64,000 nucleotides of DNA from Escherichia coli (GCF_048403405.1 NZ_CP183129.1); one strand, 5' to 3'; positions 29,593-38,220 are shown, counted from the first letter of the stretch. The notes: a model not told the origin generated them from the sequence alone. Program-made: numbers and translations.

Positions 29593-30198
29593 TTATGCAC
29601 CTGCGGCAATCAGTAACTGCGCAATCTCTTCAAAGCCTCGTTCCCGCGCCAGTTCCAGCGGCGTTTTGCCATATTTATCCGTCATGTGCGGGCTGGCACC
29701 GTGTTCAAGCAATAACTGGACAATCGCCTGCTGTTTAATCCCGCCATCATTAAGCACAATTGCTTCCAGTAGCGGCGTCCAGCCAACATGGTTGGTCTGG
29801 TTAACGTTAATCTCCGTATGCGCCAAAAGCTCTTTTACAATACTTAAATGGCCTTTTTCACAGGCAGGCGTCAGGCCGACACCGCCAAAACGGGTGACGC
29901 AATTAAGATCAGGTTTAGCCGGTAAAATAATCCGTAACAGGGTTAAATCGCCGGTCAGGCAGCTAATTAAAAAAGGATTTGAACATATTTGATCTTGCTT
30001 ATTAATATCCGCTCCGGCATCAATTAATGCCTGAACGCAAGCATATTGCTGATATAAACTTGCCAGCGTAATTGCCGTTTTCCCCTGACGATCGCAGGTA
30101 TTAATATCGACACCCAGCGCAAGGCAGGTTTTTACTTTATCGATATCACCCTGTTGCGCAGCCAATAAATAGTCGGCAGGTAGATTTTTTATAGTCAT
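29593..30198 (-). CDS. yahD: Ankyrin-repeat protein
   Basis: 201 aa with tandem ankyrin-like repeats (G-TPL--A...LL--GA). Confidence 0.8.
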   Translation of the reverse strand: MTIKNLPADYLLAAQQGDIDKVKTCLALGVDINTCDRQGKTAITLASLYQQYACVQALIDAGADINKQDQICSNPFLISCLTGDLTLLRIILPAKPDLNCVTRFGGVGLTPACEKGHLSIVKELLAHTEINVNQTNHVGWTPLLEAIVLNDGGIKQQAIVQLLLEHGASPHMTDKYGKTPLELARERGFEEIAQLLIAAGA

Positions 30199-30455
30199 TC
30201 ACATTCCCCTGGTTTTTGTGGCTGTTTTCGATGAATTGAGAATAGCAACGATAATCTGATAAAAGAACCCGCTTAAATTTAATTCGCCGTATTTCGCCTT
30301 TTTGTTGAATGATGTTCAACAATCTTTTCGCAGTGTGCGGTAGTGCAATATTTGTTTCTTTGACCCGATACCCTTTCACTCAATCAGGTTTTATTTCTCT
30401 ATAGTCTGCACATGTAAGAGTAGCTTTTGTCCATGTCTAACCAGAGGGGAACAAG

Positions 30456-30953
30456 ATGAACGGACTCACGGCAACGGGTGTCACCGTCGGTATTTGTGCA
30501 GGGCTTTGGCAGTTAGTGTCTTCACATGTCGGGCTCTCTCAGGGATGGGAATTATTAGGAACCATTGGCTTCGTCGCCTTTTGCAGTTTTTATGCCGCAG
30601 GCGGCGGTAAATCGGGGTTTATCAGAAGTCTGGCGGTTAATTATTCCGGGATGGTGTGGGCATTTTTCGCCGCGCTGGCTGCCGGTTGGCTGGCCTCGGT
30701 GAGTGGGATTTCTGGGTTCTGGGCGAGCGTGATTACTACCGTGCCTTTCTCAGCGGTAGTGGTCTGGCAAGGACGTTTCGGTTTATTGTCTTTTATTCCC
30801 GGAGGCTTTCTCGGCATGACGCTATTTTTTGCCAGCGGGATGAACTGGACGGTGACATTACTGGGTTTTCTGGCGGGTAACTGCGTGGGGATAATTTCAG
30901 AATATGGCGGACAAAAATTAAGCGAAGCGACGACTAAACGCGACGGGTATTAA
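30456..30953 (+). CDS. yahC: Small inner-membrane protein
   Basis: 165 aa, 4-5 predicted transmembrane helices. Confidence 0.7.
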   Translation: MNGLTATGVTVGICAGLWQLVSSHVGLSQGWELLGTIGFVAFCSFYAAGGGKSGFIRSLAVNYSGMVWAFFAALAAGWLASVSGISGFWASVITTVPFSAVVVWQGRFGLLSFIPGGFLGMTLFFASGMNWTVTLLGFLAGNCVGIISEYGGQKLSEATTKRDGY

Positions 30954-31044
30954 AAGTTATTCAAAAATGATTATCTATCTTTAACCGATACCTCTACAGT
31001 CATGGCTGGAGAAATTCATATTCGATAATGGCGGGAATGGTTTA

Positions 31045-31977
31045 ATGAACTCAATTTTTACCGAAGAGAATCTGTTGGCATTTACTACCGCTGCGCGTTT
31101 TGGCAGTTTCAGTAAAGCCGCAGAAGAGTTGGGTTTAACCACTTCCGCCATTAGCTACACCATCAAGCGAATGGAAACAGGGCTGGATGTGGTGCTGTTC
31201 ACTCGCAGTACCCGAAGCATTGAGTTAACGGAGTCCGGGCGTTATTTTTTCCGCAAAGCTACCGACCTGCTGAATGATTTTCACGCCATCAAACGCAGCA
31301 TCGATACTATTTCGCAGGGTATAGAAGCACGGGTGCGCATTTGTATTAACCAACTGCTTTATACGCCCAAACACACCGCACGCTTATTACAGGTACTTAA
31401 AAAGCAGTTTCCAACCTGCCAGATTACCGTGACGACCGAAGTGTATAACGGCGTCTGGGATGCGATTATTAATAATCAGGCGAATATTGCTATCGGCGCA
31501 CCCGACACACTGCTGGACGGCGGCGGCATTGATTACACGGAGATTGGCGCAATTCGCTGGGCTTTTGCTATCGCCCCGGATCACCCATTAGCCTTTGTGC
31601 CGGAGCCGATCGCCGAAAGCCAGCTGCGTCTTTACCCCAATATCATGGTGGAGGACACCGCGCATACGATTAATAAAAAAGTGGGCTGGTTGCTGCATGG
31701 GCAAGAGTCGATTCTGGTGCCAGATTTCAACACCAAATGTCAGTGCCAGATTTTAGGTGAAGGGATTGGTTTTTTGCCGGATTACATGGTCCGTGAGGCG
31801 ATGGCGCAATCCCTGCTGGTTACCCGACAAATCCATAATCCGCGCCAGGATTCACGCATGTTACTCGCAACTCAGCATTCTGCTACGGGTCAGGTGACGC
31901 AGTGGATTAAAAAACAATTTTCGCCAAATGGCATATTAACGGGGATCTATCAGGATTTACTGCATCGGGAGAATTAA
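31045..31977 (+). CDS. yahB: LysR-family transcriptional regulator
   Basis: 310 aa; N-terminal HTH ...FTTAARFGSFSKAAEELGLTTSAISYTIKRMETGL. Confidence 0.85.
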   Translation: MNSIFTEENLLAFTTAARFGSFSKAAEELGLTTSAISYTIKRMETGLDVVLFTRSTRSIELTESGRYFFRKATDLLNDFHAIKRSIDTISQGIEARVRICINQLLYTPKHTARLLQVLKKQFPTCQITVTTEVYNGVWDAIINNQANIAIGAPDTLLDGGGIDYTEIGAIRWAFAIAPDHPLAFVPEPIAESQLRLYPNIMVEDTAHTINKKVGWLLHGQESILVPDFNTKCQCQILGEGIGFLPDYMVREAMAQSLLVTRQIHNPRQDSRMLLATQHSATGQVTQWIKKQFSPNGILTGIYQDLLHREN

Positions 31978-32018
31978 TCGCTGCCAACCTCCCGATGCGC
32001 TGTGAATAGCGGTTTACA

Positions 32019-33107
32019 TCAACCACCTGCTTTCATTACCCATTCAGAGATAAATTTATTACCCGGTACTGGCGGAGAGTACAAATAGCCCTGCAAAAAG
32101 TGAACGCCTTTGCCGATCATTAAATCCGCCTGCTCCTGGGTTTCTACCCCTTCCGCCACGATACTCAGACCAGGCTTACGCGCCAGTTCGACAATATTGT
32201 CCACAATATGACCGGATATTTCGTCCACGCTCGCCATTTGCACAAATGACTTATCGATCTTAATAAAATCGACCGGGAACGCCTGCAAGTAACGATAGGT
32301 CGCATAACCCGTACCAAAGTCATCCAGCGCAAAGGTAATGTTGTGCTGATGAAGGCTGTCAAATATCGCTCTGGCTTCTGGCGTTACCGGAATAGGGTTA
32401 CGTTCCGTTAGCTCGAGAACCAGTTTGATTTTATCGTTTCCTAATTTCTTGACCAGGTTCAGGCATTCTTTTTCAAATCCCGCGGCCAAAAAACAACCCG
32501 CCGAGACGTTGATGCCAATATGGAAATTATCCGGCAGCAAATGTTTTACCGGCATCAGAATATCCGCAGTCTGTTTCATCAACTGGCGAGTCATTATGAC
32601 GATAAGACCAGATGACTCCGCCAGAGGAATAAACTGATCCGGTGGGATAATTCCCGTTTGTGGATGTTCCCAGCGGACAAGCACCTCACAGCCCGTCAGT
32701 ACCCCAGTCTGCGCGCAGAAAACCGGTTGGATCCACGGTTTAAATTCATGGTTTTCCAACGCCAGACTGATGGCTTCAGGCGTGACGATATGGTGATAGT
32801 GATTATCATTAATATATTTGTGACTATTATTACCCGTGGCGGATATGATCTCCGGATTGTACTGAAAGAAAATATCCCGCCAGAAAGTAATATCGCTCTG
32901 AATCCCCAGTTTCTCAAAGAGCTGTTTCTTTTGATGTGAAATGGTCTTTGCACTGCGATTTCTGTACTGTGATATTTCTGTTACAGACATTCCCTGCATC
33001 AGCAGCTTGAGTAGCAGTCGTTCTTTCTCGGATACGCTACCAGGCAATGACAAATGAACCGTTGTACCGAACTCTTGCAGAAAAACACGAAAATCACATG
33101 AATTCAT
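32019..33107 (-). CDS. pdeL: c-di-GMP phosphodiesterase with LuxR-type HTH and EAL domain
   Basis: ORF track 32019..33113; start at second ATG gives MNSCDFRVFLQEF..., 362 aa; EAL-domain motifs (ELTE, DDFGTGYA). Confidence 0.85.
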   Translation of the reverse strand: MNSCDFRVFLQEFGTTVHLSLPGSVSEKERLLLKLLMQGMSVTEISQYRNRSAKTISHQKKQLFEKLGIQSDITFWRDIFFQYNPEIISATGNNSHKYINDNHYHHIVTPEAISLALENHEFKPWIQPVFCAQTGVLTGCEVLVRWEHPQTGIIPPDQFIPLAESSGLIVIMTRQLMKQTADILMPVKHLLPDNFHIGINVSAGCFLAAGFEKECLNLVKKLGNDKIKLVLELTERNPIPVTPEARAIFDSLHQHNITFALDDFGTGYATYRYLQAFPVDFIKIDKSFVQMASVDEISGHIVDNIVELARKPGLSIVAEGVETQEQADLMIGKGVHFLQGYLYSPPVPGNKFISEWVMKAGG

Positions 33108-33940
33108 GAACACACCTTTTATCTTTTATCGCTGTTCAGTATGAGTGATTACCTGTGGATTCCTGAGCACACATAAGGGGTAACCATAAACATCAGCGAT
33201 GCCATACGCATAACATCCCACATCACTATCAAAAAGATTATCTTTACCTCTGATGCTCGCTCAAAAACAGTTACGCTAAATACCTTAAAAAGGTAATCAC
33301 AAGTCAAACTCAGGAGATAATCACGCAAGAATGCAATATTAAAATTCAGATACTCATTTTTGGTAATAAAGAAGTAGTTGGACTATTTCAATATTTATAA
33401 TTTCCCACTACGTATTGACGCCCATTCATGAGTAAAGGCGCATTATATGAATTTAACAATCCAGATCAACTGAAAATACCTCAACCTCATAAACACATAG
33501 CGTCAACATTCAATGACATAATGAGTAAAGATGTTGGTTATGCATACACGTCATTACTCTATGCCTATCCCTTAACAACCTGCTTTTTAAGGCTGAATCC
33601 ATTCAGCAATAGATAACCAACATTATAACAATGACAATAAAAACAATATTTAAAACAATCAATAAAATATCAGACACAGACAATTAAACCTTAAACAACA
33701 AACAGTTACATTGATTTTAGTTGATTTGCGCTACGCGTTTCCCATGAATAAAGCGTCATTTCAAATTAGCACCAATATTTACATTAAATAAGACTAAGCT
33801 TATTGAACATTCACAACAGTCCAAGCGTAGGTTTTGGGCTTCAATAGTTCTTTTCTTTTTTATTATCTGTTGCCTGGCAATCATCAATCGATACTAAGGG
33901 CTTAACTGTACACAGATATAACGTATCAAGAGGTAAGAGA
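33108..33940. promoter_or_regulatory. Unusually long AT-rich intergenic region upstream of pdeL
   Basis: About 830 bp with no credible ORF, strongly AT-biased; typical of nucleoid-protein-bound regulatory DNA. Confidence 0.4.
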
Positions 33941-33970
33941 AACCGCGCCATATGCAGACATGGCGCGGTT
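33941..33970 (-). terminator. Rho-independent terminator of betT (bidirectional hairpin)
   Basis: Perfect 11 bp stem aaccgcgccat / atggcgcggtt, loop atgcagac, T-rich flank on the betT strand; 15 bp after betT stop. Confidence 0.7.
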
Positions 33971-33984
33971 TTATGCAATAACAA

Positions 33985-36018
33985 TCACGCGTCCGGGAAC
34001 ATCACGCTATGGCCCGGCGCTTCACGATGGAGATGGATAAAGTTAAGGTGTCGCTCGTACTGGTCGAGAATATCGGTGATCACCTGCTCTTTGCTGTAGT
34101 CCATCAGGTCGTTGCCCTGGCTGCCTTCTAACAGGAAGGTTTCCAGCCGGTAGTAGGTCGATTTCCCGCTACGTGCGCGGTAGGTAAAGCCCGGCACCGA
34201 ATATTGCTGCGGCCAAATCTGATAGACAAAGTTTTGCTCTTCGCCCATATGCACCAACAAATCCAGATGCCCCAACTGTTGCCCCTCTTCCGGCGGCAGG
34301 CTTTTTAGCTCCACGTACGCGCCGCGCAACCGCAGCTCCTGCGCCACTTCTTCCATTGCCGGGTAACAGACCGTCTCCATCATCTGTTTAGTGTAACGCG
34401 TGCCCGGATAATTCATCAGGCGCGAGAGACGTTTTTTCCAGCTCAGGCGATCCTGAAGCCCCAGCGGTCGCGGCGCGGTATCACGGTTGGCACTTTCACG
34501 GCGGTAATCTTCTACCTTCAGAGATTTATACAACCCCGCCATCACGAAGAAAATCACAAAGCTGAACGGCAGCCCCATGATTACCGTGGTGTTTTGCAGC
34601 GCGGATATCCCGTTGGTCATCAGCATGCCGAGCGTCAGCAGGCCAATCGCCACCGACCAGAAGACGCGCAGCCAGCCGGGGGCGTCGCTGTTGATATCTT
34701 TAAGCTGCGAGGTGAAATTCCCCAGCACCAGCGCCCCGGAGTCCGCCGAGGTCACATAAAACAGCAGGCCAGTAATGGTGGCGACGGAGGCGCTAAAGGT
34801 AAACGCCGGATACTGCGCCAGCAGGCTGTAGAAGCCGCGCTCCGGATGGACCATCGCTTCCTCGGCAAATGCCGCGCCGCCGTGGATGATTTCATACAGC
34901 GCGCTATTGCCGAACACCGAGAGCCATAACAGCGTGAAGGTAAACGGAATAATCAACGTGCCCAGCACGAACTGGCGAATGGTACGCCCGCGCGAGATAC
35001 GCGCCAGAAACAGGCCGACAAACGGCGACCATGCCACCCACCATGCCCAGAAGAAGAGCGTCCAGTTATTCATCCACTCAACCGGACGGTCGAAGGCAAA
35101 ACTGTTGAGCGTCATGCCCATAAAGCGATTCACATAGTCGCCAACGTTCAGCACCAGCGCATTAAGCAGGAACGAGGTGTCACCCATAAACAGCACGAAA
35201 AGGATCAATCCCAGCGCCAGCGCAACGTTAAGTTCCGATAACACACGAATGCCCTTATCGACACCGGAGGTGACAGAGATCGTGGCGATGATCACCGACA
35301 AGGCGATCAGTGCCGCTTTCGCCGCCATTGAATCGGGAATATCAAACAGTACGCTCAAGCCATAGTTAAGCTGCACCACACCGATACCGAGCGTAGTGGC
35401 AATACCGAAGATGGTGCCGATTACCGCTGCAATATCCACTGAATGACCAATCGGCCCGTTAATCCGTTTACCGAAGATCGGGTACAGCGCCGAGCGGATG
35501 GTGAGCGGCAAATTATAACGATAGCTAAAGTATCCGAGCGCCATGCCCATCAGCGCATACATCGACCAGCCGGTTAAGCCGTAGTGAAACAGCGTCCAGA
35601 CCATCGCCTGACGCGCGGCCTCAATCGTCTGACCCGCGCCTTCCGGCGGCTGCATATACTGCGTTACCGGTTCGGCTACGGAGAAGAACATCAGGTCGAT
35701 ACCGATCCCGGCAGCAAACAGCATCGCCGCCCAGCTCAGCAGGCTGAATTCCGGTTTGGATTGTTCTGGCCCGAGCTTCACCGAACCAAAACGCGAACAA
35801 GCAATACAGACCACAAAGACAATATAGAGCGTTGCCGCCAGCAGATAGTACCAACCGAAGGTTTTAGAAACCCAGTCCAGCGTGCGGCCAATCCACAGGG
35901 CCGAGAAGTCGCGAAACAGGATCGTTGTCAGGGAAAACAACAAAATCAGTCCGGCGGAAGTGTAAAACACCACCGGATTGATTTTGTCCTTTTCCCTGCT
36001 GTGTGAAAGGTCTGTCAT
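33985..36018 (-). CDS. betT: Choline transporter (BCCT family)
   Basis: 677 aa polytopic membrane protein, recognised BetT. Confidence 0.9.
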   Translation of the reverse strand: MTDLSHSREKDKINPVVFYTSAGLILLFSLTTILFRDFSALWIGRTLDWVSKTFGWYYLLAATLYIVFVVCIACSRFGSVKLGPEQSKPEFSLLSWAAMLFAAGIGIDLMFFSVAEPVTQYMQPPEGAGQTIEAARQAMVWTLFHYGLTGWSMYALMGMALGYFSYRYNLPLTIRSALYPIFGKRINGPIGHSVDIAAVIGTIFGIATTLGIGVVQLNYGLSVLFDIPDSMAAKAALIALSVIIATISVTSGVDKGIRVLSELNVALALGLILFVLFMGDTSFLLNALVLNVGDYVNRFMGMTLNSFAFDRPVEWMNNWTLFFWAWWVAWSPFVGLFLARISRGRTIRQFVLGTLIIPFTFTLLWLSVFGNSALYEIIHGGAAFAEEAMVHPERGFYSLLAQYPAFTFSASVATITGLLFYVTSADSGALVLGNFTSQLKDINSDAPGWLRVFWSVAIGLLTLGMLMTNGISALQNTTVIMGLPFSFVIFFVMAGLYKSLKVEDYRRESANRDTAPRPLGLQDRLSWKKRLSRLMNYPGTRYTKQMMETVCYPAMEEVAQELRLRGAYVELKSLPPEEGQQLGHLDLLVHMGEEQNFVYQIWPQQYSVPGFTYRARSGKSTYYRLETFLLEGSQGNDLMDYSKEQVITDILDQYERHLNFIHLHREAPGHSVMFPDA

Positions 36019-36146
36019 CCAGTATCCCCACTGTTATTGTTACCATTTAAAATCAAATTCGTAACAATTAAGACACATTTTATATTGAACGTCCAATCAA
36101 TAACCGCTTTAATAGATAAACAACGCTGATGAATGGAGTGGCGAAA
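36019..36146. promoter_or_regulatory. Divergent betT / betIBA promoter-operator region
   Basis: 128 bp between divergent genes; BetI operator is expected here from established knowledge, not mapped. Confidence 0.45.
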
Positions 36147-36734
36147 ATGCCCAAATTGGGGATGCAGTCGATCCGGCGCAGACAACTGATCGACGCCACG
36201 CTGGAAGCAATAAATGAAGTGGGCATGCACGATGCAACGATCGCGCAGATCGCCCGCCGTGCAGGCGTTTCTACGGGGATCATCAGCCACTATTTCAGGG
36301 ACAAAAATGGTCTGTTGGAAGCAACCATGCGCGATATCACCAGTCAGCTGCGTGACGCGGTTTTGAATCGATTACATGCACTTCCGCAGGGCAGTGCAGA
36401 GCAGCGATTACAGGCGATTGTTGACGGGAATTTCGATGAATCGCAGGTCAGTAATGCTGCGATGAAAGCCTGGTTGGCGTTTTGGGCCAGCAGTATGCAT
36501 CAGCCGATGCTTTACCGTTTGCAGCAGGTGAGCAGCCGCCGCTTGTTGTCGAATCTGGTGAGCGAATTTCACCGCGAGTTACCGCGCCAACAGGCACAGG
36601 AAGCGGGCTACGGCCTTGCCGCGCTGATTGACGGATTATGGCTGCGCGCGGCACTGAGCGGCAAACCGCTGGATAAACCTCTCGCACACTCGCTGACCCG
36701 TCACTTTATTACTCAGCATTTACCCACCGATTAA
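36147..36734 (+). CDS. betI: TetR-family repressor of the bet regulon
   Basis: ORF track 36129..36734; second ATG gives [26 protein letters not shown]..., 195 aa. Confidence 0.9.
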
Positions 36735-36747
36735 CCGAGGAGACGTG

Positions 36748-38220
36748 ATGTCCCGAATGGCAGAACAGCAGCTTTATATACATGGTGGTTATACCTCCGC
36801 CACCAGCGGTCGCACCTTCGAGACCATTAACCCGGCCAACGGTAACGTGCTGGCGACCGTGCAGGCCGCCGGGCGTGAGGATGTCGATCGCGCCGTGAAG
36901 AGTGCCCAACAGGGGCAAAAAATCTGGGCGGCGATGACCGCTATGGAACGCTCGCGTATTCTGCATCGAGCCGTTGATATTCTGCGTGAACGCAATGACG
37001 AACTCGCAAAACTGGAAACCCTCGACACCGGAAAAGCGTATTCGGAAACCTCAACCGTCGATATCGTTACCGGCGCGGACGTGCTCGAGTACTACGCCGG
37101 GCTGATCCCGTCGCTGGAAGGCAGCCAGATCCCATTGCGTGAGACGTCATTTGTCTATACCCGCCGCGAACCGCTGGGCGTAGTGGCAGGGGTTGGCGCA
37201 TGGAACTACCCGATCCAGATTGCCCTGTGGAAATCCGCCCCGGCGCTGGCGGCAGGCAATGCAATGATGTTCAAACCGAGTGAAGTCACCCCGCTTACCG
37301 CGTTAAAGCTGGCTGAAATTTACAGCGAAGCGGGCCTGCCGGACGGCGTATTTAACGTGCTGCCGGGCGTAGGTGCGGAAACCGGGCAGTATCTGACCGA
37401 GCATCCGGGCATTGCCAAAGTGTCATTTACCGGCGGTGTCGCCAGCGGCAAAAAAGTGATGGCTAACTCGGCGGCTTCCTCCCTGAAAGAAGTGACCATG
37501 GAGCTGGGCGGTAAATCACCGCTGATCGTTTTCGACGATGCGGATCTCGATCTCGCCGCTGATATCGCCATGATGGCGAACTTCTTCAGCTCCGGTCAGG
37601 TGTGTACCAACGGCACCCGCGTGTTTATTCCGGCGAAATGCAAAGCCGCATTTGAACAAAAGATTCTGGCTCGCGTTGAGCGCATTCGCGCGGGCGACGT
37701 TTTCGATCCGCAAACTAACTTTGGCCCGCTGGTCAGCTTCCCGCATCGCGATAACGTGCTGCGTTACATCGCCAAAGGCAAAGAGGAAGGCGCGCGCGTA
37801 CTGTGCGGCGGCGATGTACTGAAAGGCGATGGCTTCGATAACGGCGCATGGGTTGCACCGACCGTGTTCACCGATTGCCGCGACGAAATGACCATCGTGC
37901 GCGAAGAGATCTTCGGTCCGGTGATGTCGCTTCTCACTTATGAATCTGAGGACGAAGTGATTCGCCGCGCCAATGATACCGACTACGGCCTGGCGGCGGG
38001 CATCGTGACGGCGGACCTGAACCGCGCGCATCGCGTCATTCATCAGCTGGAAGCGGGTATTTGCTGGATCAACACCTGGGGCGAATCCCCTGCTGAGATG
38101 CCCGTTGGCGGCTACAAACACTCCGGCATTGGTCGCGAGAACGGCGTGATGACGCTCCAGAGTTACACCCAGGTGAAGTCCATCCAGGTTGAGATGGCTA
38201 AATTCCAGTCCATATTCTAA
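36748..38220 (+). CDS. betB: Betaine aldehyde dehydrogenase
   Basis: 490 aa from ATG 36748 (SD gaggag 6 nt upstream); aldehyde dehydrogenase family. Confidence 0.9.

Follow-up and report, generated by a model that had tools for sequence, protein, structure and literature searches.

The AT-rich gap between betT and pdeL in a non-K-12 haplotype of Escherichia coli: a pdeL control region that includes the small-protein gene yahV

The window analysed here is a stretch of 64,000 nucleotides of Escherichia coli DNA, of which a long gap between two genes on the minus strand was studied. A megablast search against 5426 complete E. coli genomes placed the sequence between betT and pdeL, and annotation was transferred from strain TUM14771, which is 100% identical over 33000-34100 and in which betT and pdeL are annotated alike. 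The ORF list alone would stretch pdeL to a GTG at 33113; the start of the RefSeq coding sequence (1089 nt) was used instead. Together with the betT open reading frame of the ORF list (33985..36018, minus strand), this defines a gap of 877 bp from 33108 to 33984, which is exactly the interval that an earlier, sequence-only reading had delimited as an AT-rich region upstream of pdeL. The GC content across the gap is 0.28-0.38 in 200-nt windows, compared with 0.50-0.60 in the flanking genes, and its 824-bp segment 33119-33942 has a GC content of 0.337 versus 0.497 for the whole window. Its length, which the same reading had called uncommon, indeed exceeds that of every other among the 44 CDS-to-CDS gaps of the 50 kb around it, the runners-up measuring 564 and 526 bp. 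The features of the gap, in the direction of transcription from betT to pdeL, are as follows.

33940..33971, minus strand: betT terminator hairpin, a perfect 12-bp stem with an 8-nt loop, followed by UUUCUCUU
33784..33807, minus strand: distal PdeL box (CIB), TTCAATAAGCTTAGTCTTATTTAA, with the half-sites TTCAATAAG-N6-CTTATTTAA matching exactly
33603..33677, minus strand: yahV ortholog, GTG start, 24 codons and a stop, VSDILLIVLNIVFIVIVIMLVIYC, at the position aligned with 'protein YahV' of K-12
33592..33607, strandless: Cra (FruR) operator, a perfect 16-bp palindrome, GCTGAATGGATTCAGC
33579..33591, minus strand: Cra-dependent PdeL box (CDB), located with K-12 oligonucleotides and the scrambling primer for strain AB2402
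33442..33469, minus strand: sigma-70 promoter P1, with -35 TTGATC at 33464-33469, a 16-nt spacer and -10 TATAAT at 33442-33447
33436, minus strand: main pdeL transcription start, by orthology from the K-12 Cappable-seq site
33108..33435, minus strand: pdeL leader, 329 nt counting the start base 33436
32019..33107, minus strand: pdeL coding sequence, with LuxR-type HTH and EAL domains (PF00196 and PF00563 are present in pdeL homologs)

The hairpin behind betT is built from perfect inverted-repeat arms of 12 bp (AAACCGCGCCAT/ATGGCGCGGTTT), and its RNA on the betT strand folds with -25 kcal/mol (z = -3.8). In the tail the U tract is interrupted, and the first three U residues pair with the upstream AAA. 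A simple terminator scan made no call at this hairpin, nor at any site inside the gap. Of the strong betT terminator that had been claimed, the GC-rich hairpin is thus present, and a strong terminator is plausible.

The positions of the regulatory elements were taken from the oligonucleotide tables in the supplement of the preprint of Reinders et al. 2021 (10.1101/2021.10.01.462762). The Cra box GCTGAATCCATTCAGC has a single mismatch to the consensus GCTGAAWCGWTTCAGC (GCTGAATCGATTCAGC) and is the sole such site in the 64 kb. It overlaps yahV in the stop codon and the sense codon before it, and is identical in 15 of 16 bases to the K-12 'CB CDB' EMSA oligonucleotide, the K-12 palindrome having one mismatch. 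The adjacent CDB lies at the same position as in K-12 and differs from it at four of 13 positions (CTTAAAAAGCAGG in the window versus CTTAATGAGTGGG), so that PdeL autoregulation may be weaker or altered in the haplotype of the window. The limits of the CIB were derived from K-12 primers and from a fragment said to hold 10 bp upstream and 33 bp downstream; within these limits a single spacer base distinguishes the window from K-12. A perfect 11-nt inverted repeat at 33531-33541/33613-33623 (ATGTTGGTTAT / ATAACCAACAT, with 71 nt between the arms) flanks the Cra box and the proximal PdeL box, and K-12 keeps 10 of its 11 positions.

The binding of Cra, PdeL and H-NS and the derepression in an hns mutant are known from experiments in K-12, and are carried over to the window by analogy. 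At the proximal site of K-12, Cra binds with a Kd of 49 nM, and PdeL binds with a Kd of 76 nM provided that Cra is present; at the CIB, PdeL binds alone with a Kd of 573 nM (10.1101/2021.10.01.462762). An H-NS site overlaps the CIB, where H-NS competes with PdeL, and pdeL is derepressed in an hns mutant (10.1101/2021.10.01.462762). Scrambling of the Cra box or of either PdeL box resulted in lower transcription or lost cooperativity, and a scrambled CIB abolished both the cooperativity and the hysteresis of pdeL expression (10.1101/2021.10.01.462762). The same work cites IHF and Fis sites between both PdeL boxes, and its PpdeL lacZ reporter fragment took in all of the gap, running from the terminator into the first codons of pdeL (10.1101/2021.10.01.462762). 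A supporting statement for this biochemistry and genetics of pdeL control in K-12 is found in the preprint of Yilmaz and Schnetz. For the window, H-NS silencing of the gap would rest on its AT-richness together with these K-12 data. Two sites in the gap resemble the high-affinity H-NS motif (TCGATAAATT-like) with 2 mismatches each, and the window-wide count of such sites is not above that of shuffled sequences.

Promoter P1 scores 10 out of 12 in a promoter scan and is the best promoter-like site on its strand; taken as a class, sites of this kind show no enrichment in the region, with 3 sites as against 4.3 expected. Its -35 and -10 hexamers are identical in K-12, where the 'RNAP interaction' fragment extends from the Cra box to just beyond the -10 hexamer of P1. 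The published map of transcription starts, which the sequence-only reading had named as a check, contains a start that fits this promoter. In MG1655, Cappable-seq (Ettwiller et al. 2016, PMC4782308, U00096.2) identified a start at 331267 (+) with a score of 8.9, the strongest in the gap, and two minor starts on the same strand at 331353 (4.8) and 331503 (3.6); the same-strand list contains no start between the betT stop and yahV. With the pdeL ATG at 331595 in U00096.2, as derived from the yahV coordinates and a K-12-type record, the main start precedes the ATG by 328 nt and follows the TATAAT of the identical K-12 promoter by 6 nt. The minor starts project to about 33350 and about 33200, both inside the leader. 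The leader ends in a Shine-Dalgarno AAGG at about 33115-33118, and the fold of a 347-nt leader sequence is unremarkable compared with shuffles (z = -1.5).

The sole GATC (Dam site) of the 877-bp gap, 33464-33467, is located within the -35 hexamer TTGATC. The corresponding hexamer of the ehaA allele described below and of the sister species is TTGATT. In a dam mutant, pdeL was the second most down-regulated gene, with a log2 value of -3.08 (preprint, PMC11741368).

A known gene for a small protein runs into the Cra box. RefSeq records of the K-12 type contain a 75-nt CDS for 'protein YahV' in the gap, and its counterpart in the window has an AAGG 9-12 nt upstream of the GTG start. The gene is intact in seven of seven haplotypes, in all of which the frame is open and the product hydrophobic. 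YahV, described as a 24-residue single-pass membrane protein (PMC9976479), was detected in MG1655 with a chromosomal SPA tag and immunoblotting (VanOrsdel et al. 2018, PMC6001520); synthesis in the haplotype of the window is expected by analogy with K-12. The suggestion that the gap could hide a small protein was therefore right, albeit for a protein already known, and the description of its ORFs as only short and unsupported was wrong in this one case. In strain TUM14771 and in other strains with the same haplotype yahV lacks an annotation. Six of the 24 residues differ between the window and K-12, and YahV is represented by no model in NCBIfam or Pfam; these six changes likely escape the match made by the annotation pipeline. 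The restriction of yahV to phylogroups A, B1 and C that has been claimed in the literature is probably a product of this missing annotation. No purifying selection on yahV was detected, since one of its nine variable sites per 75 nt is synonymous and eight are non-synonymous, and the density of variable sites equals that of the surrounding non-coding DNA.

Two further reading frames were considered and rejected as coding. A 13-codon uORF on the minus strand (ATG 33429, TGA 33388) begins 7 nt past the main transcription start, and of the five positions at which it departs from K-12 four are third codon positions; the chance of such a bias was estimated at about 0.14, the stop is lost in two haplotypes, and the pattern is probably fortuitous. 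On the plus strand, ORF 33711-33791 has 14 variable sites, nine of them at third positions; in the comparison with K-12, however, two of these third-position changes alter an amino acid.

The yahV-type control region, found in about 3750 genomes, was grouped into haplotypes according to identity to the window over the 271 nt from the CIB to the Cra box:

Window-like group, at least 95% identity to the window: 1721 genomes, no yahV annotation in RefSeq
Mosaic group, 90-95% identity to the window: 354 genomes, yahV annotated in RefSeq as 'hypothetical protein'
K-12-like group, about 87% identity to the window: 1678 genomes, annotated in RefSeq as 'protein YahV'

The two main haplotypes are about 13% apart over these 271 nt (33560-33830), far above the divergence of the flanking genes. 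Between the window and K-12, divergence is distributed as follows:

Terminator to yahV: 11.8%
yahV: 9.3%
Cra box to start: 7.2%
Leader: 3.0%
Flanking coding sequence: 0-2.6%

Strains resembling MY203L1 are mosaic, being window-like upstream of yahV and K-12-like downstream of it, which indicates a recombination breakpoint near yahV. In two isolates, strains Z22-2 and 510016, an IS1 element has entered the control region. One of them carries IS1 at 33547-33555, where it lies between the -35 hexamer and the proximal box and so separates the promoter from the boxes for Cra and PdeL. In the other, a deletion of 33497-33893 linked to IS1 has taken away the CIB, yahV and the Cra box, and betT is frameshifted.

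Most of the gap belongs to a segment that is specific to one type of allele:

33119..33942, minus strand: allele-specific AT-rich segment of 824 bp; elsewhere the 4.64-kb ehaA island OI-15 (1357-6000 of L004, the ehaA-carrying locus)

This segment is one of three deeply diverged E. coli alleles. The ehaA allele is present in 1403 of the 5426 genomes, and a blastn comparison with a strain that carries it gave matches only outside 33119-33942. O-island 15 of O157:H7 measures 4643 bp (PMC8565820). It occupies the same site as the segment in the window, from the betT terminator stem to the ribosome-binding site of pdeL, the junctions of the alleles lying right after the stem and at that ribosome-binding site. 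In place of 824 bp with yahV, however, it holds 4.64 kb with a gene for a 1327-residue adhesin, and it has neither the CIB nor the CDB nor yahV. The pdeL gene of ehaA strains is just 92.7% identical. A 5.1-kb contig labelled as a metagenome-assembled genome of Collinsella sp. (JAIJJM010000200.1) shares 97.7% identity with the ehaA-pdeL region of E. coli; given this identity, it represents E. coli DNA misbinned into that assembly.

A global alignment of both alleles is meaningless past the terminator, and a tblastn search of EhaA against the gap and a relaxed blastn comparison found nothing beyond the Cra box. Despite this otherwise unalignable DNA, the ehaA allele has the Cra box in common with the window and, at the same spacing from it, a core promoter homologous to that of the window:

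Core promoter of the window (module 33430-33610): TATTTTCAGTTGATCTGGATTGTTAAATTCATATAATGCGC
Core promoter of the ehaA allele (module 5712-5874 of L004): TATTTTGAGTTGATTTGAGTTCCCGGATACATATAATGCGC

The same module was recognised in two sister species, whose loci were found via PdeL homologs. In E. albertii (L013 6788-6951) it is followed by remnants of EhaA-coding sequence and then by pdeL, and in E. fergusonii (L014 6617-6785), where ehaA is absent, it is located about 315 nt upstream of pdeL. The spacing between the Cra box and the -35 hexamer is 135-141 nt in all four cases. The alignment score of the Cra box was matched by 0-3 of 500 dinucleotide shuffles, and that of the promoter block alone by 0 or 1 of 500. 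In the same test the distal part and the leader scored like shuffles, and a comparison of these parts with the ehaA allele, E. albertii and E. fergusonii by nhmmer and shuffle tests detected no homology. The conservation of the Cra-box/promoter module across alleles and species, amid DNA that cannot be aligned, argues for functional constraint. To judge from these alignments, the module predates the alleles, and the remainder of the gap is allele-specific. In the E. albertii locus (L013 6264-8000) pdeL is not situated beside the bet operon, and the 1.7 kb upstream of it contain fragments corresponding to EhaA residues 351-399, 1039-1116 and 1214-1327, i.e. a decayed ehaA.

We tentatively suggest, at somewhat less than even odds, that this module of ~180 bp, consisting of the Cra box, 135-141 nt and TTGAT(C/T)-16-TATAAT, is the sole ancient part of the control region, that the CIB, the CDB, yahV and the present leader, by which pdeL becomes a bistable switch in K-12, are lineage-specific additions, and that the ehaA promoter of EHEC is Cra-dependent. 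In open-access text, we found no discussion of a module common to ehaA and pdeL.

Taken together, the gap is the already-studied pdeL control region of K-12 plus the known small-protein gene yahV. With a probability of roughly 0.85, we consider it to function as the pdeL regulatory region behind the betT terminator, governed by an H-NS/Cra/PdeL circuit of the K-12 type. The extended, nucleoid-protein-controlled pdeL promoter predicted by the sequence-only reading is supported both by the Cra, PdeL and H-NS data of K-12 and by the matching boxes and the -35 and -10 hexamers in the window. The outcome that would have spoken against it, a region devoid of transcription starts, protein occupancy and translation, is contradicted on all three counts by K-12 data.

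We propose that on the minus strand betT transcription stops at, or partly passes, the hairpin 33940-33971, downstream of which H-NS would coat and silence the AT-rich DNA. Transcription of pdeL would begin at about 33436 from the single well-formed sigma-70 promoter, TTGATC-16-TATAAT. Cra on its palindrome, the centre of which precedes the start by about 164 bp, would permit PdeL to bind at the adjacent box, and a PdeL tetramer would bridge this proximal box and the CIB, about 200 bp farther upstream, displacing H-NS and recruiting RNA polymerase to P1. c-di-GMP would break the PdeL tetramer apart, resulting in a switch-like positive feedback, and the 329-nt leader would take the message to the ribosome-binding site of pdeL. 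The yahV gene, translated in K-12, would be embedded in this circuit, as it sits between the two PdeL boxes and ends within the Cra box. On the diverged haplotype of the window we infer the same circuit, of which the proximal box would be the weakest link.

A different view of the gap would be that it is mostly evolutionary debris of island turnover, with ehaA present or absent, and that only the ~180-bp module of Cra box and promoter is functional, the distal part, yahV and the leader being neutral filler. Several observations fit this: neither for the distal part nor for the leader could a homolog be detected in E. albertii, E. fergusonii or the ehaA allele, the distal part is about 12-13% diverged between E. 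coli haplotypes, the substitutions in YahV are nearly all non-synonymous, and natural isolates tolerate the IS1 insertion or the IS1-linked deletion of 33497-33893. However, the CIB belongs to this supposed filler, and it is conserved in the window bar one spacer base and is needed in K-12 for the cooperativity and hysteresis of pdeL expression. The leader, moreover, is far better conserved between haplotypes (3%) than the part upstream of it. We therefore regard the debris explanation as unlikely.

Less probable still is an independent small RNA gene, which the sequence-only reading had also allowed for, whose transcript would begin at a minor start (about 33350 or about 33200) or come from the betT 3' UTR. 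The two extra same-strand starts in the leader of K-12 and the imperfect U tract of the terminator, which could permit read-through, would be compatible with such a gene. However, AT-rich, H-NS-bound DNA has many weak spurious promoters, the gap interior is devoid of terminator-like sites, and the leader does not fold better than shuffles. Rfam gave no match at E <= 1 (32500-34500) nor at the gathering score (30000-38000), and no small RNA was found. The least probable candidate, which we consider very improbable, is a real protein from the plus-strand ORF 33428-33616 (62 aa), the example given in the sequence-only reading, or from another unannotated frame. This ORF is open in all seven haplotypes, being one codon shorter in the four that are of the K-12 type in this portion of the gap, where its stop is shifted. 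It lacks a Shine-Dalgarno sequence and a significant Pfam match, its changes from K-12 comprise one synonymous and eight non-synonymous ones, and the conservation of its N-terminal half is simply that of the promoter on the opposite strand. Among all ORFs of at least 12 codons on both strands in the seven haplotypes, none displays a coding-like substitution pattern. The pdeL control circuit of the K-12 type remains the preferred reading of the gap.

Long control regions silenced by H-NS and addressed by multiple factors, with activation mediated by IS elements, are known in E. coli from flhDC, bgl and csgD. The pdeL region resembles these in being AT-rich over hundreds of bp, in its silencing by H-NS and in counter-silencing by specific activators; IS insertions in the regulatory region are also seen in isolates at the pdeL locus. 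It differs from them in that pdeL encodes its own activator, which is at the same time a c-di-GMP-sensing enzyme. The closest known system is the pdeL (yahA) promoter of K-12, investigated in the Jenal and Schnetz laboratories, which represents the same locus with the same order of elements: betT terminator, CIB, yahV, Cra box with CDB, P1, long leader and pdeL. The Cra box, the half-sites of the CIB, the -35 and -10 hexamers and the context of the start are conserved between both. In contrast, the haplotypes are 7-12% diverged upstream of the start, and K-12 carries a second GATC next to the CIB that is absent from the window.

Since both the pdeL region and YahV have been described before, the finding is real but ordinary. 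What is added here is bookkeeping: the coordinates of the elements on a non-K-12 haplotype, the annotation gap of yahV in about 1700 complete genomes, and the three versions of the control region with only the Cra-box/promoter core in common. The allele structure and the common Cra-promoter core are minor additions, perhaps of use to specialists of c-di-GMP or of EHEC adhesins. PdeL is both a phosphodiesterase and a transcription factor, and reportedly converts graded c-di-GMP levels into an on/off state, which reportedly affects motility, biofilm formation and sensitivity to phage N4. Its control region is therefore of physiological interest, though already dissected in K-12. If the ~180-bp module is indeed the sole ancient part, a Cra-dependent promoter free of PdeL feedback would drive ehaA in EHEC-type strains, and perhaps also pdeL, which lies behind it. 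The existence of three versions of the control region could thus matter when the PdeL switch of K-12 is extrapolated to B2 or EHEC strains.
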